53,650 nt of DNA. It comes from a virus. Lineage: Duplodnaviria > Caudoviricetes. This document shows positions 3,682 through 21,946 of this stretch, piece by piece; position 1 is the stretch's first letter; every line of letters begins with the position of its first letter. The notes beneath the pieces were generated by a model, which was given only the letters and a program-made list of their open reading frames with translations, had not been told where the DNA came from and did no database searches. The stretch lies in the IMG/VR virus record IMGVR_UViG_3300031707_000026, positions 1-53,650 of that record, one strand, 5' to 3'. A program made the position numbers and the translations under genes.

Positions 3682-4703
3682 CTCGATTATTTACAGACGG
3701 TGCAGAAAGTGGCGATAAATTACGCACTAATGCCTCTTCTTCTAATATGTCTGCCACGACCTCACAAAAACGAACCGGCAATTATAGTTATTATCTCCCT
3801 AGTGGCACTCTTAACAGTTCTTATTACGGCGTGGATTTGGGAGTTAATTATACAGAATTCTATGCTCGGATTGCATATAGAATCGAAGGATTTACGGCAG
3901 GCGGCCATCTTTTTAATTGGAGGAATAGTGCCGGCACAACTATTGGATCTTTGCAAGTTAAATCTTTCGCCCCATTGGTAATTGCAATGTATGATAGTAC
4001 TACCGAACGGGTAGCCTCTGCAAATCTTAATGTATTGGTCAATGAATGGCATGTTTATGAAGTTTGGGTAAAAATTAACGGTGCCGGAGTAGGCAGATTT
4101 CGAGTAAAACTCGACGGATCATTAGTGTGTGACTTTACAGGGGTAACAAATACGGCTGGCGCGAATGTTTCTAAATTCTATTCTTTCGTCGTTGGTGTTT
4201 CAGCTGATGCCTTTATAGACGATATAGCTATTAATGATACCGTCGGTGCAATTGACAATTCTTGGTGTGGTGACGGCGGTGTGTTGGCGGCCCTAGTTCC
4301 GATTACTGGCGCTGCTGAATATGCTGACTTGATCGCTAGTGCTGGAGATGCCTGGGACTGCGTGAATGAGATTCCGGCCAATAGCACCGACTATGTTTAT
4401 GAATCTACTGTGGACAAGAAATCTACTTATCTCCTGTCCGACTTAGCCGGATTGCCAAGTGGTGCATCCATTGCACGAGTATGGGTAGAGGTAGATGCTC
4501 TGGAAACGGCAGCAGATGGAGATAAAATCGCCACACTCCTGCGTAGCGCCACAACAGATGCACAGGGCGCCGATCAAATTCTGACACTTGCCTATGCGCG
4601 CTATTTATCTGCCGAATATCTTGTAGATCCTGCAGGGGGCGAGGATCCTACTTGGACAGAAGCAAAAGTAAATGCCCTGCAAGCGGGAGCGGTTGTGAGA
4701 TAA
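3678..4703 (+). CDS. Putative receptor-binding / ConA-LamG-like tail protein
   Basis: FTDGAE start, WHVYEVWVK, VKLDG and FIDDIAIND beta-sandwich pattern; tail context. Confidence 0.55.
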   Translation: MTRLFTDGAESGDKLRTNASSSNMSATTSQKRTGNYSYYLPSGTLNSSYYGVDLGVNYTEFYARIAYRIEGFTAGGHLFNWRNSAGTTIGSLQVKSFAPLVIAMYDSTTERVASANLNVLVNEWHVYEVWVKINGAGVGRFRVKLDGSLVCDFTGVTNTAGANVSKFYSFVVGVSADAFIDDIAINDTVGAIDNSWCGDGGVLAALVPITGAAEYADLIASAGDAWDCVNEIPANSTDYVYESTVDKKSTYLLSDLAGLPSGASIARVWVEVDALETAADGDKIATLLRSATTDAQGADQILTLAYARYLSAEYLVDPAGGEDPTWTEAKVNALQAGAVVR

Positions 4704-5327: not shown

Positions 5328-5378
5328 CCGGTAACCCCGGCTTTGTCATTCAACAGAGCCGTTTGAAAGGAGCACCAA

Positions 5379-5729
5379 ATGTCAGTGTTAGATATGCTCG
5401 TGAAGCTCACTGTCCAGTTCGTCTCCCTATTGGGAGTCGCCGCTCTCGTGGCGGTCGTTGTGAACCTCCTGAAGGTCTTCGGCGTGATTAAGGAAGGCAC
5501 GTCAGCATACTGGGCCTCAGGCCTCGGCTTGGCAGCATTCATCACTGCCGCGGTTCTGGGTATCTTCAACCCAGACTTGACCCCCGCATTCCTAAACGAG
5601 GCCGCCCTTAAGATTGCTACCGTCCTGACGTTCGTCTTGGGCTTCATTACACAAATCGCCGCTGCTCCGCTATTTCATAAGGCGTTGAGCTCAGGCAGTA
5701 TTCCCCTACTCGGGAAGAAGCTCAGCTGA
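5379..5729 (+). CDS. Putative holin (about 3 TM segments)
   Basis: AAAGGAG RBS; three hydrophobic stretches; basic C-terminus; end of late operon. Confidence 0.65.
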   Translation: MSVLDMLVKLTVQFVSLLGVAALVAVVVNLLKVFGVIKEGTSAYWASGLGLAAFITAAVLGIFNPDLTPAFLNEAALKIATVLTFVLGFITQIAAAPLFHKALSSGSIPLLGKKLS

Positions 5730-5807
5730 TTTGTTGTTGTCGTACAGTTAGTTAGGTCGTCTGACTGACTCTCAGAATAACTCGACTAACCTGTCTTAAG
5801 CAGGAAT

Positions 5808-5864
5808 AGCATAGTTAGTTTGTCCCTTATTACATAAGGGACAAACTAACTAACTATGCTTTTT
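5808..5864. terminator. Long hairpin plus T-tract ending the late operon; arms related to the palindrome at 34301-34350
   Basis: AGCATAGTTAGTTTGTCCCTTAT-TAC-ATAAGGGACAAACTAACTAACTATGCT followed by TTTT. Confidence 0.6.
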
Positions 5865-5907
5865 CTAATCTGATTCTAATGCGTCTCTAATCTTGATATC
5901 TTATTAT
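5865..5907 (+). promoter_or_regulatory. Promoter with three 11-bp-phased CTAAT boxes and a TATTAT -10
   Basis: CTAAT at 5865, 5876, 5887; TATTAT starts 15 nt after the start of the last box; same layout at 11231, 32895(-) and 33424. Confidence 0.6.
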
Positions 5908-5945
5908 TAAGTATCAGACTTTAACACACTCTTTCGGGAGGCAGA

Positions 5946-6227
5946 ATGTCAAGATCAGTCCCAAGCACTACCCTCAAGCTACCAGATCTCCCAATCGACA
6001 TTCCTTGCGTATATGACAATCTCTGGTCTACTGATCTTTCAGGGGCGTCTCCGGGGGGATTCATTATGTGTTCTAACTGTGGCAAGATAGTCTCAGAAGA
6101 GGGAGCTAAGTTCGGGTCGTTTAAGATCTTGACTCCCCCTGAGCCGCACTGTCGCGAGTGCTCGAAGTTAGCTGGTTTCTTTGATCGATCTGCTTGGTCT
6201 CCGCATCAAGCAGAATCTGTGTTCTAA
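5946..6227 (+). CDS. Hypothetical Zn-ribbon protein
   Basis: GGGAGG RBS; CSNC...CREC pairs. Confidence 0.55.
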   Translation: MSRSVPSTTLKLPDLPIDIPCVYDNLWSTDLSGASPGGFIMCSNCGKIVSEEGAKFGSFKILTPPEPHCRECSKLAGFFDRSAWSPHQAESVF

Positions 6228-6238
6228 GGAGGCACATC

Positions 6239-7267
6239 ATGCACGACTTATTTGATGAACGTTTCTTTTCGACTCGTCCTGAGTGGCATGGGTTGGGGGA
6301 GATCTCAGAAATCCCAACGACAGCGACTGAAGCTTGGAGTCGAATGACTCCCTACTCAATTCGAATGGCAGATCTTCTCATATCTCGGCCTGGCAAAAAG
6401 CCCGTCCCTTCAAGGTATCGCGCTATCGCTCGCGAGCCTGTTCCCGATGATCCAATCGAACGCATCTTTGGAGTCATCGGCCCTGATTACATCTTGATTG
6501 AGCCTCAAGAGATCTGCGAAATCTTCGATGCAGCTGTTCAGACGCCTATTCAGACGTTAGGAGCTCTCGGAAAAGGAGAGACGCTGTTCATGTCAGTTCA
6601 TCTCCCTGATCTGAATATCCGAGGTGATCCAGTCGAGAACTACTTGGTCTTGATTTCGCCATACTTCGGGAATGCAGCTCTCAGGACGATGATTACTCCT
6701 GTTCGTCCTGTCTGTAGAAACACTCTTCGTATGGCTTCGTACGCTGCAACTGAAGTCTATCGCGTGACTCACGATCCTTCAGCACAGAAACACTTGTCTG
6801 CGTGGATGTCAGGGATGATGACTCGTGCTAAACAACGTACTGAAACCCTTCAGCAAGCCTTCGAGATGTTCGTATCGTACCAGCCTTCAACGAAGATCGT
6901 CCCGAACATCGTCGAGAGAGTCTACTCGTACCCTGAGGCTCCTGCTGGGGATGACGTCGATGTAGAGCTTGCAGCTCGTCGCATCGCGAACTACGAAGCA
7001 ACTGTCGTGACTCTTGATCGTTCTCGTGAGGCTGTTCAAGAACTCTTCGACGGACGAGGTACTGGCTTAGAAGTCCCAGCATGTCGCGGGACTGGTTGGG
7101 GCTTGTACAACGCAGTTGCTGAATGGGAGAACTGGCGTCACACAACGAATGATCAATCTCGTGGCGAGTCAGTTCTTGTTGGGGCTCGAGGTGCTGTGAT
7201 CGAGAAGGCGTACAAAGTCGTCTACGACTACGCTTCTCGTGCAGCTAAGCGTCAAGGAACTGACTGA
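6239..7267 (+). CDS. DUF932-family protein
   Basis: AAGGAGG RBS before ATG 6239; PEWHGLG, TPVRPVCRNTL and GTGWGLYNAVAEW motifs. Confidence 0.85.
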   Translation: MHDLFDERFFSTRPEWHGLGEISEIPTTATEAWSRMTPYSIRMADLLISRPGKKPVPSRYRAIAREPVPDDPIERIFGVIGPDYILIEPQEICEIFDAAVQTPIQTLGALGKGETLFMSVHLPDLNIRGDPVENYLVLISPYFGNAALRTMITPVRPVCRNTLRMASYAATEVYRVTHDPSAQKHLSAWMSGMMTRAKQRTETLQQAFEMFVSYQPSTKIVPNIVERVYSYPEAPAGDDVDVELAARRIANYEATVVTLDRSREAVQELFDGRGTGLEVPACRGTGWGLYNAVAEWENWRHTTNDQSRGESVLVGARGAVIEKAYKVVYDYASRAAKRQGTD

Positions 7268-7485
7268 TGATAGATATTGTTGTCGAGCGAAAAGCATCAG
7301 TACGAATTCTGACTGGTCAAGTCGTCTACTTCACTTGAATGGGAAACGTTCGTCCAGCTCGCCTGGATGGATCGATGACACCAGTTGGTGTTGCTGCGCA
7401 CGATATAGAGAAGGGTGATCTCATCGAGTATAACCCTCTTGAGAACACGAGAGATATCCTTATCGACTTAAAGGGAGACGATTAA
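7267..7485 (+). pseudogene. 72-codon ORF with one in-frame TGA (7336-7338); resembles the head-decoration paralogs at 40297/40733
   Basis: TGATG overlap with the upstream stop and TAATG overlap with the downstream start; translation ...ILTGQVVYFT*MGNVRPARLDGSMTPVGVAAHDIEKGD... Confidence 0.55.
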
Positions 7486-7886
7486 TGAGCAACACTTCTG
7501 TTCAAGTTATTCAGTTTGGATTCAAGAAGATCAATCTTCGCAGCGAAGGAGAGCAGTTCCTGACTGAAGAGGGTCATGTTCGTTTCTGGTCGTCAGAAGG
7601 GTATGCTCTCAAGTTCCTCAGAAAGACTGGGTATTCTTGGGTTGTGACGAAGCTTGACGGCTCGATCGAATATGTGAATTGTTTGTCCCTAGAAGACGAA
7701 GACAAGTATGGCCCTCATGATTGGGAAAAGAAGAATCTTGTGACACTCGTAGACGGCGCCGGGATGTATGATGTCATACGATGCTCACACTGTAACGAGG
7801 AGAGGAAATGCTACGGGTTGTATCGTCCCTCGGGAGGGACTTGTAAGCAGAACATCCTTGAGAAGGAGCTTGAAGTAGATGGCTGA
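7485..7886 (+). CDS. Hypothetical protein with C-terminal Cys cluster
   Basis: Coupled ORF, GGGAG RBS, CSHC...C...C. Confidence 0.55.
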   Translation: MSNTSVQVIQFGFKKINLRSEGEQFLTEEGHVRFWSSEGYALKFLRKTGYSWVVTKLDGSIEYVNCLSLEDEDKYGPHDWEKKNLVTLVDGAGMYDVIRCSHCNEERKCYGLYRPSGGTCKQNILEKELEVDG

Positions 7887-8259
7887 CATCACTCCAGGCA
7901 CCCCTGTTCAAACCCCTGATGGGGAAGGAATCGTTGACAAGTGTGTTTGGGCTGATCCTTCAATACCCGAGCCTGTATGGCTAGTTCGCTTAGTCAAGTC
8001 TAATGAGTTCCGATCGTTTCGACAAGGTGTCCTGACGGTCTTGTCTTCTCCTACGAAAGTAAAGACAAAGAAGGGAACAGACTCTATCTCATCAGATCTT
8101 ATCGGGAGTCGATGGCGAAATCGAAAGAATCAAAAGATCTGGAAGTACGTTAGTCTTAGTCTTGAAGGCGTTGTTCGATTAGATCTCGAGGGAACCCCCG
8201 GGTATTTTTATAACGTGTTGTCAAGAAATCTCGAGAGTCGATATGAGAGGGTCGCATGA
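7879..8259 (+). CDS. Hypothetical protein
   Basis: AAGGAG RBS; overlaps both neighbours. Confidence 0.55.
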   Translation: MADITPGTPVQTPDGEGIVDKCVWADPSIPEPVWLVRLVKSNEFRSFRQGVLTVLSSPTKVKTKKGTDSISSDLIGSRWRNRKNQKIWKYVSLSLEGVVRLDLEGTPGYFYNVLSRNLESRYERVA

Positions 8260-12062: not shown

Positions 12063-12559
12063 CCAAGCAAATCCAGATCGATTTCGGCGCAGTTGAAGAC
12101 TTCGCTGCCCTCCCTGATGGGAGCTATCCTGTCGCTGTCGATCACGTCGAGATGCGTGATTCGAAGTCCAGTGACATCCCCTATCTAAGTTGGGACTTGA
12201 TCGTGAGCGGCGACGAGTATGCAGGTCGTCATCTGTTCTTCACGACATCCCTCTCGGAGAAGAGCCTGTGGCGGTTGAAAGCTGTCCTGAACAACCTACA
12301 CATTCTCGAAGATCAGATGTCCTTCGAAGTTGATGAAGAGTCGAAGTACATCATCTCACCTGAGCTGGCTGGCTTGCCAGCTATTGCAATCGTCTCGACA
12401 GAGATCTATCAAGGACGTACTCAAAATCGTGTCGAAGATCTCGTGAGTGCAGAAGAAGCTCCTATTGTCAAGCCTGCACTAGTCAAGACTACCAAAGCTG
12501 CTGGTCCAACAGCTCCTCCTTCAACTACCAAGAAAGCTCCAGCTCTCAAGCTTCGATAA
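12059..12559 (+). CDS. DUF669-like ssDNA-binding protein
   Basis: DF.ALPDGSY, EYAGRHLF, SLWRLK, YQGRTQNRV pattern; follows Sak4-like gene. Confidence 0.7.
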   Translation: MTKQIQIDFGAVEDFAALPDGSYPVAVDHVEMRDSKSSDIPYLSWDLIVSGDEYAGRHLFFTTSLSEKSLWRLKAVLNNLHILEDQMSFEVDEESKYIISPELAGLPAIAIVSTEIYQGRTQNRVEDLVSAEEAPIVKPALVKTTKAAGPTAPPSTTKKAPALKLR

Positions 12560-12726
12560 TCTCTCGACTGTGCATCGGCTGTGAAACTGGTGTCGAAGTC
12601 GTCCCTTGTGTCCATCCAACCAAGGCTATTAGCCAGTCGACAAGTGAGACTCCAACGCAGCTTACGCTGTTGTAATGGCGCTCACAGGAAAAGGTAAGCC
12701 GAGCCGGACAGTGTAACCGGCATCGA

Positions 12727-12799
12727 TGCGGGGTGGAGCAGCGGTTAGCTCGCGTGGCTCATAACCACGAGGTCGCGGGTTCAAATCCCGCCCCCGCTA
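12727..12799 (+). tRNA. tRNA-Met(CAT), initiator (fMet)-like
   Basis: TGCGGGG/CCCCGCT acceptor with 1:72 mismatch, TGGAGCAGC D-arm, CTCATAA loop, GGTTCAAATCC T-arm; no encoded CCA. Confidence 0.92.
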
Positions 12800-12821
12800 C
12801 TTATTTGTAGAGAGGAGTGTT

Positions 12822-13010
12822 ATGCAGACTCAAGATAAGAGTTCAGGCACAAAATGGTGGCTAAAGATTGTAGGTCCTCCTGATCAGCTAGTTAAAGTCT
12901 CGAGAAGAGTTCACGAGCCAGTCAAGCCTGCATCGAACAATCAACCTGCACACGTTGATGTACCAGCGAGAAAAGTTGGCAGAATCCCGTTCTTTCAGAA
13001 GGAGGACTAG
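12822..13010 (+). CDS. Small hypothetical protein heading the deazaguanine cassette
   Basis: GAGGAG RBS; stop abuts the GNAT start. Confidence 0.5.
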   Translation: MQTQDKSSGTKWWLKIVGPPDQLVKVSRRVHEPVKPASNNQPAHVDVPARKVGRIPFFQKED

Positions 13011-13670
13011 ATGAGTAATTTCAGAATTCGATTTGCTACACTCAAGGATCTTGACGAGATCCAGAATCTCTTCAATCACCCAGACATCATTGCTGGGCTT
13101 GGTGGCTTCACAATGAGAGATCAAATTCGAGACTGCATCAAGGTCCGCCCATCTCTTTGGGTTGCAGATCTCGATGATAAGATTGTCGGGGCTCACATGT
13201 TCGGGGGTCGCCCACAAAGTCATATGATCAAGCTTGGACATGTTGGAGTTCTTCCCGAGTATCGCCGCCAGCGAATCGAGACATCATTGTACTTCACAGC
13301 AGTAGCACAAGCTGTCCTCGAGGGTCGTCGATTGATTGAAGATACTATCGTAGGCGACAACGAAGCTCAGAAGATTGCTCTGCCGACGATGGGATTTCGC
13401 CTTGCTGGAGAGCTCGTTCATCGAACTGGCTCAGAGAAGTCGATCTTCTTGTATCAGCTCTCTCTACTCTGGGACAAGGCTTGGAGTCTGATCTACTCGC
13501 GATGTCCCCCAGATCTCTGGATCGAACTTAAGACGAACTCATACACATCAGATCTTTGGGAGAAGAACATGACGCTCTATACTTCGAAGAACAGCAAAGC
13601 TTCAACAATTGTTGTATTGATACGCAAGTTTCTTGAAGGAAGCCCAAATGTTCAAATCTTCAGAGAATAG
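13011..13670 (+). CDS. GNAT-family N-acyltransferase
   Basis: IRFATLKDLDEI start, VADLDDKIVG, HVGVLPEYRRQRI (motif A-like), DNEAQ..LPTMGF (motif B-like). Confidence 0.8.
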   Translation: MSNFRIRFATLKDLDEIQNLFNHPDIIAGLGGFTMRDQIRDCIKVRPSLWVADLDDKIVGAHMFGGRPQSHMIKLGHVGVLPEYRRQRIETSLYFTAVAQAVLEGRRLIEDTIVGDNEAQKIALPTMGFRLAGELVHRTGSEKSIFLYQLSLLWDKAWSLIYSRCPPDLWIELKTNSYTSDLWEKNMTLYTSKNSKASTIVVLIRKFLEGSPNVQIFRE

Positions 13671-14082
13671 TTCTTTTGAAGCTCTAGGTAAGACAGTTCG
13701 GGGTGCTCGCAAGCAGCTTGAGACATTCCCAACACCCAAAGGTGTTACTCATGTAACCATGACGAGTCACGAATTTACTTCTGTTTGCCCGATTACAGGA
13801 CAACCAGACTTCGGGTCTGTCGAGATCTCTTATAACCCGCGCGACAAGTGTCTAGAGTCTAAGAGTTTGAAACTATACTTGATGACATTTCGTGAAGCAG
13901 GAACGTTTTGTGAGGCTCTAGCAGCAGAGATTGCTCGAGACGTTCAAGACGTTCTTGATGCGACGAGTGTGAAAGTTACAGTCACACAAGTCCCTCGAGG
14001 AGGGATTGAGATTAGAGCAGAAGCTGTTGCGTGGGCACCCAAGTTGAAAGGAGGTGGCTGTAACTTACCAATGCAGGGCTAG
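13648..14082 (+). CDS. queF: PreQ0 nitrile reductase QueF (unimodular)
   Basis: EFTSVCPITGQPDFG (catalytic C and D), QueF signature ESKSLKLYL, PRGGI. Confidence 0.92.
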   Translation: MFKSSENSSFEALGKTVRGARKQLETFPTPKGVTHVTMTSHEFTSVCPITGQPDFGSVEISYNPRDKCLESKSLKLYLMTFREAGTFCEALAAEIARDVQDVLDATSVKVTVTQVPRGGIEIRAEAVAWAPKLKGGGCNLPMQG

Positions 14083-14088
14083 TCCCCC

Positions 14089-14123
14089 AGATGGTCGAAG
14101 CAACCCATTTCAAACAAAAGGAG
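14089..14123 (+). ncRNA. preQ1-I riboswitch-like aptamer in the yhhQ leader
   Basis: AGATGG-TCGAAGCAAC-CCATTT stem-loop, then CAAACAAAA running into the SD GGAG; same layout as the T. tengcongensis-type preQ1-I aptamer. Confidence 0.5.
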
Positions 14124-14130
14124 TATCATA

Positions 14131-14769
14131 ATGTTTCGCAAACGCTTCTCATTCCTGTTCGTCGTCTTGGTCGCTCTGTCTTCAGTAGCCTTGATCGTGT
14201 CCAACATCATAGCTGGAAAGCTCTGGCAAGCACCTTTCGGGTTGATCTTTACTACAGCTGTCTGGCTGTTCCCGATCGTCTACATCCTGAACGATGTGAT
14301 CCCAGAATGTTATGGCTTGAAGACAGCTCAGAAAGTTATCTTCACAGCCTTTGGGTTGAATGCCCTGGCTGTTCTATTCTTCTACATCTGCTTGTGGCTT
14401 CCAGCTCCAGTCTTCTGGCAGAATCAAGCAGCCTTTCAGACAGTCTTGGGATTTACCGTTCGACTCTTGATTGCTTCGTTTGCTGGGTACCTGGCCGGCT
14501 CTAACTTGAACGTCTGGATCATGGTAACTATCAAGAAGCTAACTCACGAGAAGTACTTGTGGGTTCGAACGATTACTTCGACGATCTTCGGCGAGTACTT
14601 GGACACCTTGATCTTCGCATCCATCGCCTTCTATGGGACGATGCCACTTTCAGCTCTAGGATCCTTGATTCTCTCGATGGGAGCTTTCAAGATCCTCTAC
14701 GAAGTCTGTGCTACCCCATTGACATACATCGTTGTTAACTGGGTCAAGAAAGTCGAGAAAGAAACATGA
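14131..14769 (+). CDS. yhhQ: Queuosine-precursor (preQ0/preQ1) transporter, YhhQ/VUT family
   Basis: SNIIAGK, FPIVYILNDVIPECYG, ASFAGYLAG, LWVRTITST..GEYLDT.IF..IAFYG. Confidence 0.9.
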   Translation: MFRKRFSFLFVVLVALSSVALIVSNIIAGKLWQAPFGLIFTTAVWLFPIVYILNDVIPECYGLKTAQKVIFTAFGLNALAVLFFYICLWLPAPVFWQNQAAFQTVLGFTVRLLIASFAGYLAGSNLNVWIMVTIKKLTHEKYLWVRTITSTIFGEYLDTLIFASIAFYGTMPLSALGSLILSMGAFKILYEVCATPLTYIVVNWVKKVEKET

Positions 14770-15143
14770 TTGAGACACGAATCTGTAAAGAATTTACATT
14801 CGAAGCTTCTCATCAACTCCCCAATCACAAAGGGAAGTGCAAGAACCTTCATGGGCACTCGTATCGAGTTCAAGTCGAACTCTCAGGAGAGATCAACTTA
14901 GTAGAGGGAGCCTCTGATGAAGGGATGATCACAGACTTCGGAGATCTCTCAGAGATCGTCAAGACTGAAGTTCTCGATCGATTTGATCATCATCACTTGA
15001 ATGATCTGATCGTAGCTGTCCCGACAGTAGAGATTCTAGCAATGATCATCTTCAAGATCATCCGAAGAAAGACATCGAAAGTCTCCCGAGTTCGTATCTA
15101 TGAGACAGCTACATCGTATGCAGAGGTAGTTGATGTCGAATAG
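14766..15143 (+). CDS. queD: 6-carboxytetrahydropterin synthase QueD
   Basis: FEASHQL, CKNLHGHSY, DFGDL, DHHHLND, PTVE, ETATS. Confidence 0.93.
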   Translation: MIETRICKEFTFEASHQLPNHKGKCKNLHGHSYRVQVELSGEINLVEGASDEGMITDFGDLSEIVKTEVLDRFDHHHLNDLIVAVPTVEILAMIIFKIIRRKTSKVSRVRIYETATSYAEVVDVE

Positions 15144-15816
15144 CTTTCCTGTCGTCGAGATCTTTGGGCCTACTCTTCAAGGAGAAGGCCCTCAGATCGG
15201 CCTCAGATCAACATTTGTTCGATTTGCTGGCTGCGATCTTCGCTGTACATGGTGTGATTCGATGCATGCTGTCTCGTCTAATCCAAGAACGAAGATGCTC
15301 TCAATTGAAGAGATTCTATCGCGTATTCGATCTCTTCTTGAAGTCGAGTGGGTCGTCCTGACAGGAGGAAACCCTCTATTATATGACTTGAGTGATCTCG
15401 TGTCTCGTCTTCAATCGGGAGGGTATCGAGTAGCTGTTGAAACTCAAGGAACACTCTGGAAGCCTTGGATAACTTGGGTCGACTGTCTCGTTGTCTCTCC
15501 TAAACCCAAGTGGTCTCAGCCTGAAGCATATCAACAACGAACATGCGTAGATCATCGATTCGAACATCTTCGAAAAAGCGAGTTCTACAAGATCGTTGTC
15601 TTCGAAGAAAGAGATCTCGATTTTGCTGAACAGTTCTCTGAAGTCGGAGATCATCTCTATCTATCATGTGGGACTCTCCCAACAGACTCTTCAAGTGATG
15701 TTCTTCAGAGACTTCGAGATCTGACGAAGAGATCTTTTGATCGTCCTGCTCTTCGAAGTGCCTATTTTCTCCCACAGCTTCATGTTCTTCTGTGGGGACA
15801 CAAGCGAGGTGTGTAG
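15133..15816 (+). CDS. queE: 7-carboxy-7-deazaguanine synthase QueE (radical SAM)
   Basis: EIFGPTLQGEG, FVRFAGCDLRCTWCDS, LTGGNP, ETQG, SPKP, PQLH. Confidence 0.93.
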   Translation: MSNSFPVVEIFGPTLQGEGPQIGLRSTFVRFAGCDLRCTWCDSMHAVSSNPRTKMLSIEEILSRIRSLLEVEWVVLTGGNPLLYDLSDLVSRLQSGGYRVAVETQGTLWKPWITWVDCLVVSPKPKWSQPEAYQQRTCVDHRFEHLRKSEFYKIVVFEERDLDFAEQFSEVGDHLYLSCGTLPTDSSSDVLQRLRDLTKRSFDRPALRSAYFLPQLHVLLWGHKRGV

Positions 15817-15817
15817 A

Positions 15818-16375
15818 ATGTCTGATCGACTTGAGACTCTCATTGAGAGCCTTCTGATAGAATCTGGAGATGACTATACTCGAGAAGGGCTCAAAGATAC
15901 TCCTCGAAGAGTCGCTGCTGCCTATCGAGAGATGTGGGCAGGGTATGGTCAAGATCCTGCAGCAATCCTTCGAACTTTCGATTCTGAAGGACATCACGAC
16001 TTGATCTCAGTCACTCAGATTCCTTTCTATTCGACATGCGAGCATCATTTGTTGCCGTTCTTCGGAGTAGCTCATATTGGGTACATCCCTGAAGACAAGA
16101 TCATCGGGATCTCAAAAATTGCTCGAGTCGTCGAAATCTTTGCTAGACGACTTCAAGTCCAAGAGAGACTGACAGCGCAAGTTGCTGATACGTTGTTCGA
16201 AGAGCCTCTTGGGCCTCAAGGAGTCATTGTTGTGCTTCAAGCTGAACATCTGTGCATGGCAATGCGAGGCATTCTGAAGCCTGGGACGATTACAACAACA
16301 TCAGCAATTCGAGGAATCTTTGTCGATGATGTCGATCTTCGAGCTGAATTCTTATCTTTGATTCAAAAGAGGTGA
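15818..16375 (+). CDS. folE: GTP cyclohydrolase I
   Basis: REGLKDTPRRVA, STCEHHLLPFFG, GISKIAR, RRLQVQERLT, HLCMAMRG. Confidence 0.95.
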   Translation: MSDRLETLIESLLIESGDDYTREGLKDTPRRVAAAYREMWAGYGQDPAAILRTFDSEGHHDLISVTQIPFYSTCEHHLLPFFGVAHIGYIPEDKIIGISKIARVVEIFARRLQVQERLTAQVADTLFEEPLGPQGVIVVLQAEHLCMAMRGILKPGTITTTSAIRGIFVDDVDLRAEFLSLIQKR

Positions 16376-17040
16376 CTATGAGTGCTGTCTTACTACTTTC
16401 TGGAGGGCTCGACTCAGGAACTCTCTTGACGAAACTCTATCACGAAAGCATCGATGTCATCCCTCTATCTATCGACTATGGCCAGAGGCACAGAGGTGCT
16501 GAGGGAGAGGCTGCTCAACATCTATCAGACTTCTTCAGAGTACCCCTGAAAACTTTATCTCTCGAAGATGTCTTCTCTTTTATTCCCATGGGAGCTCTCT
16601 TGAGTACCACACCCATGCCTCATCTGTCGTATCAAGAACTGGCAGAAGAGGTTGGCCCTTCCCCGACGTATGTTCCCTTCCGGAATGCAGTCTTGATTTC
16701 AGCTGCAGTCTCGATAGCTCTTCAAATCGAAGCAGACTCAGTCTACATTGCTACTCATGCTGAAGATGCTCGTAATTGGGCCTACCCTGATTGTACCCCT
16801 GAGTTTAACGGCTCCATGGCGGCAGCAGTCTATGTTGGGACGTACTCGAAGGCCCGGCTGTTCACTCCCTTCCAGTGGATGATGAAGCGAGACATCGTTA
16901 AGCTCGGCCACGAGCTGAATGCTCCGTTCCACTTAATGTGGTCTTGCTACGAAGGAGATCTGACTCCTTGTAGAAAATGTCCCACATGCATAGAAAGAGC
17001 AGAAGCCTTTCGAGCAAATGGTCTTAAAGACCCTATGTAA
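16372..17040 (+). CDS. queC: 7-cyano-7-deazaguanine synthase QueC
   Basis: LSGGLDS, YGQRH, TYVPFRN, YPDC, WSCY...CRKCPTC; no glutamine amidotransferase fusion. Confidence 0.95.
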   Translation: MTMSAVLLLSGGLDSGTLLTKLYHESIDVIPLSIDYGQRHRGAEGEAAQHLSDFFRVPLKTLSLEDVFSFIPMGALLSTTPMPHLSYQELAEEVGPSPTYVPFRNAVLISAAVSIALQIEADSVYIATHAEDARNWAYPDCTPEFNGSMAAAVYVGTYSKARLFTPFQWMMKRDIVKLGHELNAPFHLMWSCYEGDLTPCRKCPTCIERAEAFRANGLKDPM

Positions 17041-17074
17041 GTAAATCGACTCGCAGGCTAGACCTGCGAGCCTC

Positions 17075-17150
17075 GGGCCCGTAGTTCAACTGGGAGAACC
17101 ACTTGTTGCCTCCCGGCAAGTGATAGAGTGTTCGAGTCCTCTCGGGTCCA
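17075..17150 (+). tRNA. Aberrant tRNA-like gene (pseudo-tRNA, anticodon not assignable)
   Basis: GGGCCCG/CGGGTCC-A acceptor, TAGTTC..GAAC D-arm, GTTCGAGTC T-loop; anticodon arm CACTTG/CAAGTG has an 11-nt loop and the T-stem has a bulge. Confidence 0.6.
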
Positions 17151-17237
17151 CTCAAAATTGCTCAAAATCTTAGGGTATAAAGATACCCTTCTCACTAAAT
17201 GGACATGTCCTAGACAGTCCTACAAGGAGATTCTACT

Positions 17238-17513
17238 ATGCCAAGCTTTGTTGAAGTGGTCCAAGAAGAAATTCAAGAGTGTCAAAAGATCATCCAGATT
17301 CACAGTGAAGCTGGAGAGAATGCTGTTGTTCCCATCGAGCAGATGTTTCCTCACGGGATTTCTGATGTAACCTACACGATCTTTATGAAGGCTGCTCGAG
17401 CAATCGGGTACGAGATCTCGGGAGACGAGGATCGAGTTCGTGAGGAAGTTCGCGACATAGTAAATTACTGTGGGTTTCTCTTGGCACTTCTGAGAAAGAG
17501 AGACTGGTCATGA
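17238..17513 (+). CDS. Nucleotide-modification-associated domain 1 (Nmad1/DUF1599)-like protein
   Basis: K..R...EEVRDIVNY helical motif; AAGGAG RBS; inside the modification locus. Confidence 0.55.
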   Translation: MPSFVEVVQEEIQECQKIIQIHSEAGENAVVPIEQMFPHGISDVTYTIFMKAARAIGYEISGDEDRVREEVRDIVNYCGFLLALLRKRDWS

Positions 17514-18196
17514 CGCTTTCAATTCCCTCAACTGTTATTCGAGAGCTCAAGCATCTTGTGCTACTCTCCCCCTCTCGATTTCCTGTTCGAGTCATCTTCG
17601 AAGAGGTACCCGAAGATCTCTTCCCGTCTAAAGCTGTCAAAGTAGGTCCCTCGATCTATCGCAAGTTCATCTGCGAAGATTTGTGTAGCGTATGTTGTCG
17701 ATCCTTCGGCCCTCTTACTCTAGACTATCTCCCGATAGAGTCTGAGTGGTTGAAGCTCGATCCACAAACTCAATCAATGTTCGAAGAAAAGTCTATTTGG
17801 GTTGACGAGACCAAGAAGGTATTCTACTCTCTCGTCAAATCTAAAGAGTACTGTCCTCTTGCATCGTCGAGAGGGTGTAGCGTGTGGCCTCGAAATCCCT
17901 TAGCATGCGCAGCCTCGGCACGTATTCAGATCTCGAAATACCTCGAGACGACGATGATCTTGAAGAAGGGATTCTCTCGAGAGTGGCGATGGGCTGAACG
18001 AGCTCAATGCGAGTATCTTGACATTCTCGAGTGGGATGCTTCAGAACTCGGGAAGGATCTTCAGATTCTTGATCGTTATGAAGCTTGGGCGAAGTACTTT
18101 AATATCCCTACAATCGTCTCTGAGATTTGTACGAACTTGACAGCATCGTACCTTCTCGAGAAGATCATACCGTTCCAGTGTAATTTTGAGGAGTAG
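17510..18196 (+). CDS. CxxxCxxCC Fe/Zn-chelating protein (YkgJ/FliB-like; candidate DpdM-like preQ1 methyltransferase)
   Basis: CEDLCSVCC...CPLASSRGCSVWPRNPLAC; immediately upstream of the dpdA-like gene. Confidence 0.55.
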   Translation: MTLSIPSTVIRELKHLVLLSPSRFPVRVIFEEVPEDLFPSKAVKVGPSIYRKFICEDLCSVCCRSFGPLTLDYLPIESEWLKLDPQTQSMFEEKSIWVDETKKVFYSLVKSKEYCPLASSRGCSVWPRNPLACAASARIQISKYLETTMILKKGFSREWRWAERAQCEYLDILEWDASELGKDLQILDRYEAWAKYFNIPTIVSEICTNLTASYLLEKIIPFQCNFEE

Positions 18197-18199
18197 TGC

Positions 18200-19084
18200 A
18201 TGAAACCAACAATCCTTCCCCCGATCCCAAATCTTAGCTTGGCTGTAGGTCGACAGCATCACTTGGTTCTATCTCACTTGCTTCAAAGCCCGAGATACGA
18301 AAACTTTTATATTACTGAATCTTGGAATGGTGCTTACATCATTCTAGACAACTCGGCACACGAGAAGAAGCATGGGGAGTCTCCAGAAATTCTCTTGCAG
18401 CAGGCTGAAGAGATCAGAGCTTCTGAGATCGTCTGTCCTGATCACTTATTCGATCGAGCAGACACTGTTCGTCGTACTCGAGAAGCTCTTCAATTCTTTC
18501 TTGTGAATGAAGCGAGGCTGCGACAGATGACTCCAATTCCTCGTCTGATGCTTGTACCTCAAGGATCTTCTCCTGCTGAGTTCTCGTCTTGTTTACAAGA
18601 GCTGGTTCTCGAGTTCCTTGCTATCCAAAAAAAGTCTGGAGAATCATCGACTTTCTTCCCTACAATTGGAGTCTCAAAAGACTACGAGATGTGGGAAGGA
18701 GGGTTGCATCATCTGCTGAGACATGTCATCTTTCCAGTAGCTGCAACGCTTTCTGATCCTGAGATTCATCTTCTTGGGTGGGGGAGAGATCTTTGGGCTC
18801 TCGAGTCGATCGTCGAAGATTTTGGAGATCTCATCAGATCAATCGACTCAGCTAAACCTATCGTCTATGGGATTGCAGGACTTCGTCTTGACCCAAACGT
18901 TCCTGCACCAGAGTATCCTAGGCGATCTAAGATCTACTTCACCACTTCTATCTCAAGCGAGAATCTCGAGATCGTTCGAGAGAACATCAAGGTGTTTGAT
19001 ACTATTGTCTCGGGAGGCGCTAGTGATACCCAACTACGAACCCTGCCTAAAATGTCCACTCAAGGATTGCCCTCCAGTCCCTAG
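18200..19084 (+). CDS. dpdA: DpdA/TGT-like DNA guanine transglycosylase
   Basis: TIM-barrel TGT motifs ILDNS, CPD, VPQG, IHLLG, SIDS; adjacent to a full preQ0/preQ1 pathway and the polymerase. Confidence 0.7.
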   Translation: MKPTILPPIPNLSLAVGRQHHLVLSHLLQSPRYENFYITESWNGAYIILDNSAHEKKHGESPEILLQQAEEIRASEIVCPDHLFDRADTVRRTREALQFFLVNEARLRQMTPIPRLMLVPQGSSPAEFSSCLQELVLEFLAIQKKSGESSTFFPTIGVSKDYEMWEGGLHHLLRHVIFPVAATLSDPEIHLLGWGRDLWALESIVEDFGDLIRSIDSAKPIVYGIAGLRLDPNVPAPEYPRRSKIYFTTSISSENLEIVRENIKVFDTIVSGGASDTQLRTLPKMSTQGLPSSP

Positions 19085-21449
19085 CATACTAGTCTCAGAG
19101 GGGGTTGCTGTTGTGGGAGAAGCTCCCGGGGCTGTCGAAGTTGTTCAGAAAAAGCCTTTTGTAGGAGTATCAGGCCAGCTTCTTCGCGAGACCTTAAAGG
19201 CTGCAGGAGTTGATCTCGAGAAAGTGAGCTTTCTCAATGCCTGTTCATGCAGACCGCCTGACAACAAAACCCCCTCACAGTCTGCGATAAACGCTTGCTC
19301 AGAACGACTGATGAGAGAGCTCGAACAAGTCTCTCCAACTAAAATCCTGACAGTTGGAGGAAGTGCAGCTTCGACGATGTTGTCTCCTGGGAAGACTACG
19401 GCGATCACGAAAGTTCATGGTCAGGGGATGATGTGGAGTCACTCTACGTCATCGAAGTCAATATATCTTGTTTCAACGTTTCACTCAGCTGCTGTAACTC
19501 GAAACCCTGATCTATTTCGGGACTTTTCAAAAGATATTTTGAAGTGGAGCTTGAGCTTCTCCCCCTACTCATCTCCCGAGATTACAACCCTAGTAGCCCA
19601 ATCTATCGAAGAAGCTCTCGAGTACTTGGGATATCTACAGGGTGCTTCTGTGGTCTCGTGTGACTTGGAGACATCTGGGTTCGACTTCTTGTCAGACGAG
19701 ATCTTCTCCGTTGGGTTTGGGGCAATTGATCAAGACGATTCTCTTCGAGGACTCGTTGTCATCATTCCATTTCAATATGCGAATACTACACAAGTGAGTC
19801 AGCGAATCATTGATTTGCTGATCGATGCAACAAAGACTATCGTGTTTCATAACTGTAAGTTCGATTTGCAGTTCCTTCAAACATGGCTCGACGAAGATTT
19901 CGAGCCCTCGAATATCGCAGATACGATGCTGATGCAGTATGCTCAGGATGAACGTGGATCGGGAGATGCTGTCACAGGTCGAGGGTATCGATCTCTAGGA
20001 TTGAAAGATCAAGCTCGACTTCGATATGATATCTCTGACTATCGTTTCGACTTCGAGTCGTTCTTGAAAACCCCATCTAGTGAACGATCTTGGGATGCTC
20101 TCTATCAATATCATGCAATGGATTGTTACTGTACTGTTCGTCTGTACTTTGATCTTCTCGAAGAACTCGACGAAGAATCACCAAAACTCATGCAGCTAGT
20201 CAATCGAATTCTAGTCCCAGGAGCTCGAGCCCTCGCTCAAGTCGAACGAACAGGAGTCCCGATCAATGTGGAATACTTCAAGACACAATCAGATCTCTTG
20301 ACTGGAGAATTGTTACAGCTCTCAGAAGTTCTTGCGAGTACTGCAAGAGCACATGGGATCGAAGATCTCAATCCTGCATCACCTTTGCAGATCAAGAAGG
20401 TAATGAAGGCAATGAAGATCAATCTCGTATCAACAGAACGTGATTTCGTAAGCTCATACCTCAAACATTACAAGCTTTCTGAGATCGCCAGGCTATTCCT
20501 GACAACCCTAATGGAGTACCGTCAGAAGTCAAAAGTCCTTCAGACATACATGACTGGGCTTCTCGAACGTTCTCGCAACGGTCGAGTTCATCCTGATTTC
20601 TTGCTGACAGGAGTAGATACTGGCAGATTAGCTTGTCGTGATCCAAACCTCCAGAACATCCCAATTCTAATGGGGAGGATCGTTCGAGATGGCTTCGAAG
20701 CCCCTGATGGGTACATGCTCATGGAGGGTGATTATTCGCAGCTCGAATTAAGAGTAGTTGCATGGTATTCTCGAGATATAAACATGGCTACAATCTTTAG
20801 GACTGGTCGAGACATCCATCGAGAAGTCGCGGCGACGATGTTCAGAAAGTCTACTAAAGACGTTACTGAGCTTGAGCGCTACATGGCTAAGTATGTTGAC
20901 TTTGGAATTATCTACGGGCGTGGAGCTAAATCTCTCTCAGAAGGGTGGGAGATGGACTATGTAGTCGAACATGGAGGAACTCCTTGGACATTCTGGGAAG
21001 CTGAGAAGTTTTTGAACGACTTCTTGAATGGTTTCCCGGGACTGCGTGATTGGATTGATCGACAGCATCGTCTAGTTCGAGCCCAACGATTCGTCGAAAC
21101 ACCGACTGGACGTCGTCGAAGATTCCCTCTGATGCTTCAGGATACTATCTATTTGATGGAGCGAAAGGGTGTAAACACCCCCATCCAATCCCTAGCGTCG
21201 GACATATGCCTCACGAACTTGATCTATTTGAAAGAACATGTTCTCCCCAAAGAGATTCGAATCATCTCGACAGTTCACGACTCAATTCTGTTTCTCGTTC
21301 CCGAAGAGATGATCGAAGAATGGGTCCCTACGATTGAATCGACTATGGAGGTTTGCAGAGCTCTTCCCGATGGAGTCGTTTTTGATATTCCTTTGAAAGT
21401 CGATGTTAAGATCGGAAAACGATGGGGTGACATGACGAAGGGATTTTAA
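19023..21449 (+). CDS. polA: Family A DNA polymerase with N-terminal family-4 uracil-DNA-glycosylase-like domain and 3'-5' exonuclease
   Basis: GGGAGG then GTG 19023; CLKCPL, GEAPG..E...KPFVG.SG, CRPP (UDG); DLETSG, HNCKFD, YHAMD (Exo I-III); DYSQLELR, RYMAKYVDFGIIYG, TVHDS (Pol motifs A/B/C). Confidence 0.92.
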   Translation: MIPNYEPCLKCPLKDCPPVPSILVSEGVAVVGEAPGAVEVVQKKPFVGVSGQLLRETLKAAGVDLEKVSFLNACSCRPPDNKTPSQSAINACSERLMRELEQVSPTKILTVGGSAASTMLSPGKTTAITKVHGQGMMWSHSTSSKSIYLVSTFHSAAVTRNPDLFRDFSKDILKWSLSFSPYSSPEITTLVAQSIEEALEYLGYLQGASVVSCDLETSGFDFLSDEIFSVGFGAIDQDDSLRGLVVIIPFQYANTTQVSQRIIDLLIDATKTIVFHNCKFDLQFLQTWLDEDFEPSNIADTMLMQYAQDERGSGDAVTGRGYRSLGLKDQARLRYDISDYRFDFESFLKTPSSERSWDALYQYHAMDCYCTVRLYFDLLEELDEESPKLMQLVNRILVPGARALAQVERTGVPINVEYFKTQSDLLTGELLQLSEVLASTARAHGIEDLNPASPLQIKKVMKAMKINLVSTERDFVSSYLKHYKLSEIARLFLTTLMEYRQKSKVLQTYMTGLLERSRNGRVHPDFLLTGVDTGRLACRDPNLQNIPILMGRIVRDGFEAPDGYMLMEGDYSQLELRVVAWYSRDINMATIFRTGRDIHREVAATMFRKSTKDVTELERYMAKYVDFGIIYGRGAKSLSEGWEMDYVVEHGGTPWTFWEAEKFLNDFLNGFPGLRDWIDRQHRLVRAQRFVETPTGRRRRFPLMLQDTIYLMERKGVNTPIQSLASDICLTNLIYLKEHVLPKEIRIISTVHDSILFLVPEEMIEEWVPTIESTMEVCRALPDGVVFDIPLKVDVKIGKRWGDMTKGF

Positions 21450-21946
21450 TGAAGATTTCTGGTGTCTATCAAATCACTTTCTCGTGTTCTGAGACGAGGT
21501 ATATTGGATCATCGAGTGACATGCTTTTTCGAAGAGACTGTCATCTATATGATCTAAGATGTAGAGTTCATGTTAACTCACATCTTCAGAATGCTTTCAA
21601 CAAGTATGGTGAAGGAGCTTTTAGGTTCAGGGTCCTCCTGTATTGTGATCCCTATAATTGTACTCTATACGAACAGAGACTCATAGACTTCTTGGGATTA
21701 GAGAAGCTTTATAACATTTGTCCGCAAGTTAACTCTGTAGCTCGAACTAGAGTAAGACCCTATCATCTGTCTTTCGATCATCGAGAAAAGATTAGTCGAG
21801 CTAACAGGGGTAAAACTCGTACTCAGAAGATGCGAGAAAGAAACAGTCTTACTCACAGAGGCAAGTACCCTTCACAAGAGACTCGAGAGAAACTCAGACA
21901 AGCTCAAAGAGCTCGAAGACTTAGGGAGAAGATGAATGACTGCTGA
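21449..21946 (+). CDS. Free-standing GIY-YIG homing endonuclease with NUMOD3-like tail
   Basis: SGVYQI...YIGSS, HLQNAFNKYG, E...YNI, SQETREKL. Confidence 0.85.
   Translation: MKISGVYQITFSCSETRYIGSSSDMLFRRDCHLYDLRCRVHVNSHLQNAFNKYGEGAFRFRVLLYCDPYNCTLYEQRLIDFLGLEKLYNICPQVNSVARTRVRPYHLSFDHREKISRANRGKTRTQKMRERNSLTHRGKYPSQETREKLRQAQRARRLREKMNDC

Follow-up and report, generated by a model that had tools for sequence, protein, structure and literature searches.

A GNAT-fold protein encoded with QueF in uncultured phages is a candidate N-acyltransferase for the 7-deazaguanine base preQ1

A linear viral record of 53,650 bases (IMG/VR record IMGVR_UViG_3300031707_000026; Duplodnaviria, Caudoviricetes; 59% complete according to CheckV), referred to here in its whole length as the window, was analysed with respect to a GNAT-family gene that overlaps the start of queF in a 7-deazaguanine locus. 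Ten genes, all on the + strand and packed closely, occupy positions 13011–19084. The first is the GNAT gene (13011–13670, 219 residues; Pfam PF00583 Acetyltransf_1, 29 bits against a cutoff of 20.7, E = 1.4e-6), the ATG of which at 13011 is preceded by AAGGAGG. Its stop codon (TAG, 13668–13670) sits inside queF, which starts with the ATG at 13648 behind the Shine–Dalgarno-like sequence GAAGGAAG, so that the two reading frames overlap by 23 nt as read from the sequence. The queF gene (13648–14082) encodes a unimodular NADPH-dependent preQ0 reductase of the type that yields preQ1 (TIGR03139, QueF-II, 105.3 bits against 86.9; PF14489, E = 4.6e-21). QueF enzymes carry the signature E(S/L)K(S/A)hK(L/Y)(Y/F/W) and a catalytic cysteine; ESKSLKLYL and the cysteine motif SVCPITGQPDF are both visible in the translation.

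Downstream of queF lie the genes for a YhhQ/Vut_1 queuosine-precursor transporter (14131–14769; PF02592, E = 1.7e-44; TIGR00697, 109.7 bits against 50.95), the 6-carboxytetrahydropterin (CPH4) synthase QueD (14766–15143; PF01242, E = 1.1e-33; TIGR03367, 100.8 bits against 89.25), the radical-SAM (S-adenosylmethionine) 7-carboxy-7-deazaguanine (CDG) synthase QueE (15130–15816; TIGR03365, E = 1.8e-59, with 201.2 bits slightly below the cutoff of 206.1; PF04055, E = 8.9e-11), the GTP cyclohydrolase I FolE (open reading frame, ORF, 15737–16375; PF01227, E = 3.9e-69; NF006826, 239 bits against 162) and the preQ0 synthase QueC (16372–17040; PF06508, E = 7.7e-50; TIGR00364, 144.9 bits, slightly below the cutoff of 150.3). 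The probable start of folE is the ATG at 15818, one base past the queE stop codon. They are followed by a small protein conserved in the clade (orf91, 17238–17513; weak DUF1599 match only, E = 0.033), by orf228 (17510–18196), which like orf91 had been missing from the earlier gene list of the locus and was recognized as a DpdM homolog by its homology to phiSM gp53 and its eight cysteines, and by a 294-residue DpdA-like protein (18200–19084), a candidate DNA transglycosylase of the tRNA-guanine transglycosylase (TGT) fold assigned by fold and context outside the Pfam TGT model. The orf91 protein is 60–67% identical to its counterparts in L001, L003 and L027 (L numbers denote the loci gathered for comparison), and three of four members match DUF1599 (`nucleotide modification associated domain 1') weakly. 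No match to ArcS (PF17884) was found within the window, and QueC is a single domain of 222 residues and therefore not Gat-QueC. The seven 7-deazaguanine genes, the genuine QueF with its ESKSLKLYL motif, the 23-nt overlap and the absence of ArcS and Gat-QueC had all been reported in the first-pass annotation and were borne out by these analyses. In a nucleotide search with the locus the sole match was to 350 bp of folE from Streptococcus phage Dp-1.

The GNAT protein consists of a core (about residues 1–152) and a family-specific C-terminal extension (about residues 155–219) with a conserved YTxDLWEKN. In the AlphaFold model (predicted local distance difference test score, pLDDT, 94.2) the extension after residue 155 is helical/strand, and a Foldseek search with this model returned many GNAT structures at a probability of 1.00, the best of which were coenzyme A (CoA)-dependent N-acetyltransferases (E about 1e-9). 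PA2578, PA4794, Ard1 and SpeG were matched with E values of about 2e-9 to 4e-8 and target TM-scores of 0.7–0.88 and share the fold at only 12–22% sequence identity. From the model the protein can be assigned confidently to the canonical GNAT fold, with CoA-dependent N-acetyltransferases as its closest predicted relatives. Structure and feature matches in the ESM Atlas fell into generic GNAT clusters only, and a Foldseek search against viral structures returned only generic, shorter GNATs, in none of which the C-terminal extension was present.

A family search of 5.8 billion proteins yielded 24 clusters, which were aligned as the family alignment. It contains 22 invariant columns, including GGRPQSH, EGRRLxEDTIVGDN and the C-terminal YTxDLWEKN, which is absent from ordinary GNATs; the extension of about 65 residues and EGRRLxEDTIVGDN are what set the family of the window protein apart from generic GNATs. 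Of 1.84 billion cluster representatives, a profile of the 24 members matched no more than 121 at E ≤ 1e-3, a number that fell to 94 at E ≤ 1e-10 and to 42 at E ≤ 1e-30. Ordinary GNATs were not drawn in by the profile, and by this sequence criterion the protein belongs to a small dedicated family separate from the general GNAT superfamily. The isoelectric points of the family range from 6.4 to 9.5 and do not separate DNA-binding from non-DNA-binding members.

The pyrophosphate-binding loop of GNATs (motif A) has the consensus Q/R-x-x-G-x-G/A. In the window protein this loop reads RRQRIE and is two positions off the consensus. The fourth position is filled by R, K, H or G across the family, the sixth in most cases by A, G or S, as in QRKGIA, RRQGIS, RMQGVA and RRQGIG; judged from the alignment, the loop is homologous throughout the family and degenerate in the window clade. 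The first-pass annotation had rightly called RRQRIE non-canonical; its further suggestion of an unusual acyl donor has weak evidence in this motif, because the degeneracy is a trait of the window clade and other members are canonical at the G and A/G positions.

GNAT loci were gathered from viral, metagenome and genome contigs (narrower alignments being used for the contig scans) and their neighbours were scored in tblastn searches with Que, DpdM and DpdA sequences as queries, by Pfam and by whole-record searches; gene identities, folds and comparative linkage are the directly observed part of this work. The loci fall into 14 GNAT lineages; in a direct comparison of 12 of them no pairwise identity exceeded 47%. 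The first-pass annotation had proposed as a check that GNAT homologs be sought next to queF and dpdA in other phages. The check was run, and such linkage was found: 7-deazaguanine genes occur on the contig or genome of the GNAT in 12 of the 14 lineages and QueF in ten. A rough base rate for comparison is given by the 37 matches to the window QueF among 50,697 GenBank phage records.

Lineage 1 is the clade of the window (ten loci; GNAT identity 94% for L024 and 75–77% for L001–L004 and L025–L028), in which GNAT overlaps queF. The gene orders are GNAT–QueF–QueC in lineage 2 (L031), FolE–QueD–GNAT–QueC–DpdM–QueF in lineage 3 (L009), QueE–QueD–FolE–GNAT–QueC–DpdM–QueF in lineage 4 (L005, identical to L012), QueD–QueE–FolE–orf65–DpdM–GNAT–QueC–QueF–DpdA–PolA in lineage 5 (L033/L010), FolE–QueC–GNAT in lineage 6 (L035) and GNAT–QueF–QueC–QueD–QueE–FolE, followed at some distance by a DpdA-like gene, in lineage 12 (L111/L097). 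In lineage 7, a complete jumbo phage of 236 kb (L011), the positions are about 95 kb for GNAT, 122.7 kb for QueF, 125.8 kb for QueC and 150.5 kb for a DpdM-like gene. QueF is found about 7 kb downstream of GNAT in lineage 8 (L041/L042), with a YhhQ homolog about 9 kb downstream, and about 5.5 kb downstream in lineage 9 (L044); QueD, QueE and FolE lie about 5 kb downstream in lineage 10 (L043). In lineage 11 (L080) GNAT stands between QueC and a DpdA-like gene together with DltC-like and DltA-like genes, and lineages 13 (L032) and 14 (L034) are represented by contigs with no Que gene.

In L001–L004 the genes folE, queD, queE and queC do not occur and GNAT, QueF, YhhQ, orf91, DpdM and DpdA are kept; the persistence of GNAT where the preQ0 genes are lost places it downstream of preQ0. 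The same four genes are likewise missing from L025, L026 and L028, in which the other six are again kept, and L027 retains queC alone. These seven loci without any of the four genes presumably live off host or imported preQ0.

Some features of individual clusters were recorded alongside. The jumbo phage record (236,368 bases, with direct terminal repeats) has its four genes spread over about 55 kb; its QueF is a 413-residue frame with two QueF-domain matches, and neither a DpdA of the window type nor one of the Pfam TGT type was detected in it. The FolE of L033 (8282–9199) has an N-terminal phosphoribosyltransferase-like domain (PF00156, E = 2.3e-6), a weak match to which was also seen in L005 (7778–8170), and the QueC of L033 (10716–11768; 350 residues) has an N-terminal extension of about 130 residues.

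Linkage of this breadth would be harder to account for if GNAT were an accessory gene with no part in DNA modification, such as an acetyltransferase serving anti-defence or host takeover that stayed in the early replication module by descent. Stand-alone GNATs are numerous in phage genomes, and the gene has no Que neighbours in the jumbo phage, L032 and L034, as such an origin would allow. Against it, 12 of the 14 lineages are linked to Que genes in varied orders and on distant phage backbones (PolA identity 24–36%, plus the 236-kb jumbo phage), the family has few members and stands apart from general GNATs, and GNAT was retained when four neighbouring biosynthesis genes were lost. We regard an accessory role as improbable.

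The DpdA-like protein had no Pfam or NCBIfam match, and PF01702 (TGT) found nothing in the window. Its AlphaFold model (computed with 42 members; pLDDT 92.4) matched bacterial TGT in Foldseek at E = 4.6e-8 and the DpdA structure 7ui4 at rank 38 with E = 8.4e-7, in keeping with the TGT-fold, DpdA-like gene that the first-pass annotation had named. A profile search against PDB sequences gave nothing meaningful (best E = 1.2), tblastn against the GenBank phages gave only four weak matches, and comparison with the DpdAs of phiSM, L033 and L005 gave an hhalign probability below 4%. The sequence family comprises 303 proteins at E ≤ 1e-3 and 62 viral loci; a Que or YhhQ gene lies within 8 kb of the DpdA-like gene in 59 of these loci, the other three being truncated upstream, and a PolA gene then follows in 59 of the 62. 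Four aspartates are invariant (D50, D81, D161 and D216) and lie at strand ends in the model. In Salmonella DpdA the active-site aspartates Asp95, Asp130 and Asp256 are described as invariant (PMC10164549), and the spacing of D50, D81 and D216 resembles theirs. From the modelled fold and the context the protein is classed as DpdA-like, outside PF01702 and not filed in DpdA1–4.

Among the 62 viral loci with a DpdA of the window type, QueF is present in 46, a DpdM-like gene in 30 and GNAT in five, and all five GNAT loci have QueF. L097 is a sixth GNAT locus; there the edge of the locus truncates GNAT, which was retrieved as L111. The complete clusters without QueF (L099, L103, L104 and L106) have neither GNAT nor a DpdM-like gene. 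This association of GNAT with QueF ties it to the amine-forming step.

The DpdA-like family is characteristic of a large group of uncultured phages (the window and L048–L109), whose conserved module consists of a PD-(D/E)XK nuclease, a single-stranded DNA-binding protein (SSB)-like protein, the que genes, the DpdA-like gene and PolA; the work thereby defines this group together with a new sequence family of DpdA-like transglycosylases.

On sequence grounds orf228 is homologous to DpdM, for which a role as dPreQ1 N-methyltransferase has been published. DpdM is described as a validated methyltransferase of the DUF3109/YkgJ-like type with CxxxCxxCC, four further cysteines and two metal sites (PMC10516641). 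The corresponding motif in orf228 is CEDLCSVCC, and it is also carried by gp53 of Cellulophaga phage phiSM, which sits between QueF (gp54) and DpdA (gp52) and was identified as DpdM by its cysteine positions and this placement. BLASTP aligned orf228 with gp53 at E = 8e-7 and 24% identity over 191 residues, and C55, C59, C62, C63, C115, C123, C133 and C167 are invariant in an alignment of eight sequences from five phage lineages that includes gp53. As in phiSM, orf228 stands directly upstream of the transglycosylase gene. The protein itself had no Pfam match even at E ≤ 10; its homologs P0028, L005 (E = 3.2e-8) and L033 (E = 1.7e-5) match PF03692 (CxxCxxCC). QueF is present at 24 of the 30 DpdM-like loci of the window DpdA type, the remaining six being cut by the contig end upstream, and GNAT at four. 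Neither GNAT nor the DpdM-like protein matched any of the 50,697 GenBank phage records in tblastn, and there is therefore no cultured phage to serve as a model.

GNAT and a DpdM-like gene occur together in five of the 14 lineages (the window clade, L005, L009, L033 and the jumbo phage), and in L033 the two genes overlap. They might thus carry out another chemistry jointly, such as carboxymethyl or carbamoylmethyl transfer from acetyl-CoA by the GNAT-fold protein and the metal-binding DpdM-like protein, for which Elp3 (radical-SAM plus GNAT) and Mom of phage Mu offer analogies. According to Cui et al. (PMC10516641), the CxxxCxxC portion of DpdM is similar to an Fe4S4/SAM motif and the methyl donor is not established, which would suit such a scheme. 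Each partner is nevertheless found alone: no DpdM-like gene was found in L080 or L111 by tblastn or in the group C records (L041–L044; 49–63% complete), while DpdM works without GNAT in phiSM-type and Vibrio phages, GNAT family members being unmatched in the GenBank phage set. Joint chemistry consequently appears improbable to us. A strict pairing of GNAT with DpdM was likewise rejected on the records without a detectable DpdM-like gene. A predicted complex of GNAT with the DpdM-like protein scored 0.00 in two runs, a result that speaks neither for nor against binding.

Whether the free base or DNA would be acylated was addressed through the transglycosylases. GNAT co-occurs both with DpdA of the window type and with the phiSM-like DSGAF type of L033 and L005 (L033 DpdA against phiSM DpdA: 34% identity, E = 1e-24), two types that bear no sequence relationship to each other. 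In an alignment of 60 DpdA-like sequences, columns conserved to at least 70% in GNAT-less loci and changed in all three GNAT-bearing lineages were sought, and none of the 294 columns set the latter apart from the rest. As a control the same method found 13 columns separating loci with QueF from those without it, a contrast confounded by the greater divergence of the QueF-less sequences (20–38% identity). One of the residues concerned, D161, is kept in 43 of 44 loci with QueF, lost in five of six without it and retained in the GNAT-bearing lineages; it may be a determinant of specificity for preQ1 over preQ0, since an acidic residue would be expected for binding the free, charged aminomethyl group. 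The two unrelated DpdA types, the lack of any distinguishing column and the outcome of the control incline us, with only moderate weight, to the view that GNAT would act after the base has been inserted into DNA.

The neighbourhood of GNAT in L080 (an IMG/VR contig, also present as L110) bears on the donor. GNAT (5340–6107) lies there between QueC and a DpdA-like gene, from which it is separated by three ORFs (within 5340–8004). These encode a DltC-like carrier protein of 89 residues, whose serine motif reads LDSLD (NF003464, E = 2.4e-6, under the curated cutoff), a 438-residue DltA-like amino-acid adenylating enzyme (PF00501, E = 1.2e-50; NF003417, E = 2.8e-99, 333 bits, below the cutoff of 476) and a 116-residue protein without a Pfam match (7654–8004). 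Because an activating enzyme and a pantetheinyl carrier adjoin a transferase that depends on pantetheine, the arrangement fits acyl or aminoacyl transfer by the L080 GNAT, with the pair as an acyl-activation module feeding the transferase. The DltC-like/DltA-like pair was found in no other fetched locus.

The que cluster of L080 also contains an N6/N4 DNA methylase gene (3772–4467). In L043 the interval between the distant GNAT homolog and QueD/QueE/FolE (12545–15939) holds a LuxE-type acyl-protein synthetase of borderline score (PF04443, 24.5 bits against 24.9), a 351-residue protein and a class-III aminotransferase (E = 5.4e-77).

Linkage shows functional association and not the substrate of GNAT, and the enzyme could instead belong to the 7-deazaguanine system as a regulator that acetylates a controlling protein or small molecule (QueF, DpdA, a host TGT or queuosine enzyme, or the free preQ1 pool). 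Its closest solved structures are protein and small-molecule N-acetyltransferases (Ard1, PA4794 and SpeG), and it is dispensable in most phages of the same DpdA type, which would both be compatible with control. A regulator would less readily explain that the association follows QueF, the amine-making step, and not any one DpdA type, that the carrier and adenylating enzyme of L080 point to the building of an acyl adduct, and that relatives relying on host preQ0 retain GNAT. We therefore consider a regulatory function unlikely, although better placed than the accessory role or the joint chemistry discussed above.

The best explanation of the locus as a whole is that it equips the phage to exchange guanine in its DNA for a hypermodified preQ1. 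In the pathway proposed here FolE, QueD, QueE and QueC would convert GTP to preQ0, a precursor that YhhQ could also import; QueF would reduce preQ0 to preQ1 with its primary aminomethyl group; the TGT-fold DpdA-like enzyme would exchange G in DNA for preQ1; and two tailoring enzymes would act on the amine, the DpdM homolog by N-methylation (by homology to the tested enzyme) and GNAT by N-acylation. The donor of the latter would be an acyl-pantetheine, by default acetyl-CoA and in the L080 relative a loaded carrier protein. The products would be N-acetyl-dPreQ1 or N-methyl-N-acetyl-dPreQ1, calculated to be +42.01 and +56.03 Da, respectively, over dPreQ1. We infer the preQ1 amine as acceptor, the nature of the donor, the sequence in which the two tailoring enzymes act and the choice of DNA over the free base. 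We lean moderately to the assignment of GNAT as an N-acyltransferase of the preQ1 aminomethyl group that probably acts after insertion of the base into DNA. Acylation of this amine had been put forward in the first-pass annotation; the linkage to queF and dpdA gives it partial support and L080 adds an independent argument for acyl transfer. Plain acetyl-dPreQ1 is no longer the sole product to be expected, the DpdM homolog implying that the product may be N-methyl-N-acyl and not simply N-acetyl.

Several observations weigh against the N-acyltransferase assignment. Both the acceptor and the donor are inferred, and the operon also encodes a DpdM homolog directed at the nitrogen of that amine, so that methylation and acylation may be alternatives or GNAT may have another substrate. 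The window motif A departs from the consensus, and the argument for action on DNA is negative evidence from three lineages only. The linkage has gaps: no Que gene is present on the short contigs L032 (5.4 kb) and L034 (2.3 kb), no QueF match was found in the L043 record (61% complete), in the jumbo phage at least some 27 kb separate GNAT from QueF, QueC and the DpdM-like gene, and the 5–7 kb gap in group C (L041–L044) is filled by unrelated genes (dCMP deaminase, ThyX-like and flap endonuclease, FEN). Finally, GNAT is rare, being present in only five of the 62 loci with the same type of DpdA, and is therefore dispensable for base exchange.

Among known enzymes, Mom of phage Mu is GNAT-related and reportedly converts adenine in DNA to N6-carbamoylmethyl-adenine in an anti-restriction role. 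It resembles the proposed GNAT in being a phage enzyme of the GNAT fold with a DNA base amine as substrate and differs from it in the base, in the chemistry and in having no 7-deazaguanine context. The Mu modification has been named 6-NcmdA in the available preprint text (10.1101/2025.10.29.685425). The preQ1 amine is described as being methylated by DpdM, and formylation by DpdN has been proposed (PMC10516641). DpdM shares with the proposed GNAT activity the same nitrogen, the dependence on QueF and the place next to DpdA, but its fold is unrelated and the group it transfers is methyl, which makes GNAT a second, additional tailoring enzyme. DpdN was, like the window GNAT, predicted from genomic context as a tailoring enzyme beside the FolE-to-QueF genes and DpdA, and the reaction proposed for it is N-acylation (formylation) of the preQ1 aminomethyl group to give fdPreQ1 (PMC10516641). 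It is a PurN-like folate-dependent formyltransferase of PF00551 and the window protein a GNAT of PF00583; the donor and the expected adduct therefore differ. The possibility that the window GNAT is itself DpdN was rejected, as no match to a DpdN-type formyltransferase (PF00551) was found anywhere in the window.

A literature search found no paper linking a GNAT or an acetyltransferase to QueF, preQ1 or dPreQ1. The main texts of Hutinet et al. (2019; PMC6884629) and Cui et al. (2023; PMC10516641) contain neither `acetyl' nor `GNAT', although their supplementary gene tables might list such neighbours. Phage DNA is known to contain eight 7-deazaguanine derivatives, and the modifications of the preQ1 amine given in the main text of the latter paper are methyl and formyl only (PMC10516641). 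The phages that combine GNAT with QueF thus probably build a DNA base that has not yet been described, and from an acyltransferase family so linked to QueF one or more additional natural DNA bases would be expected, perhaps an aminoacylated one. Going further, the family might generate a series of N-acyl and N-aminoacyl dPreQ1 bases, derived from acetyl-CoA in window-like phages, possibly on top of DpdM methylation (as a tertiary amide), and from an amino acid passed on by the DltA-like and DltC-like proteins in L080-type phages, which would amount to nonribosomal peptide synthetase-like chemistry on a base already in DNA; we offer this wider scheme tentatively and with more doubt than belief. 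Defence glycosylases are reported to act on some 7-deazaguanine derivatives and not on others (10.1101/2025.10.29.685425), and since host defences discriminate in this way a new adduct would bear on the evasion of restriction and of glycosylases. DNA labelling is a further conceivable use of an enzyme able to acylate a particular DNA base.

Three further features were noted at the edges of the locus. A tRNA-Met gene (CAT, 12727–12800) lies directly 5′ of a conserved ORF of 62 residues (12822–13010), which is followed by GNAT. As listed, the PolA ORF (18774–21449) begins before the DpdA-like gene has ended, and its long N-terminal region, in which GEAPG occurs, may be a domain resembling family-4 uracil-DNA glycosylases. 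A 165-residue ORF (21449–21946), a putative GIY-YIG homing endonuclease from its resemblance to that motif, stands between the PolA and primase-helicase genes; L001–L004 have no counterpart of it, and their PolA and primase-helicase genes are 20 nt apart.

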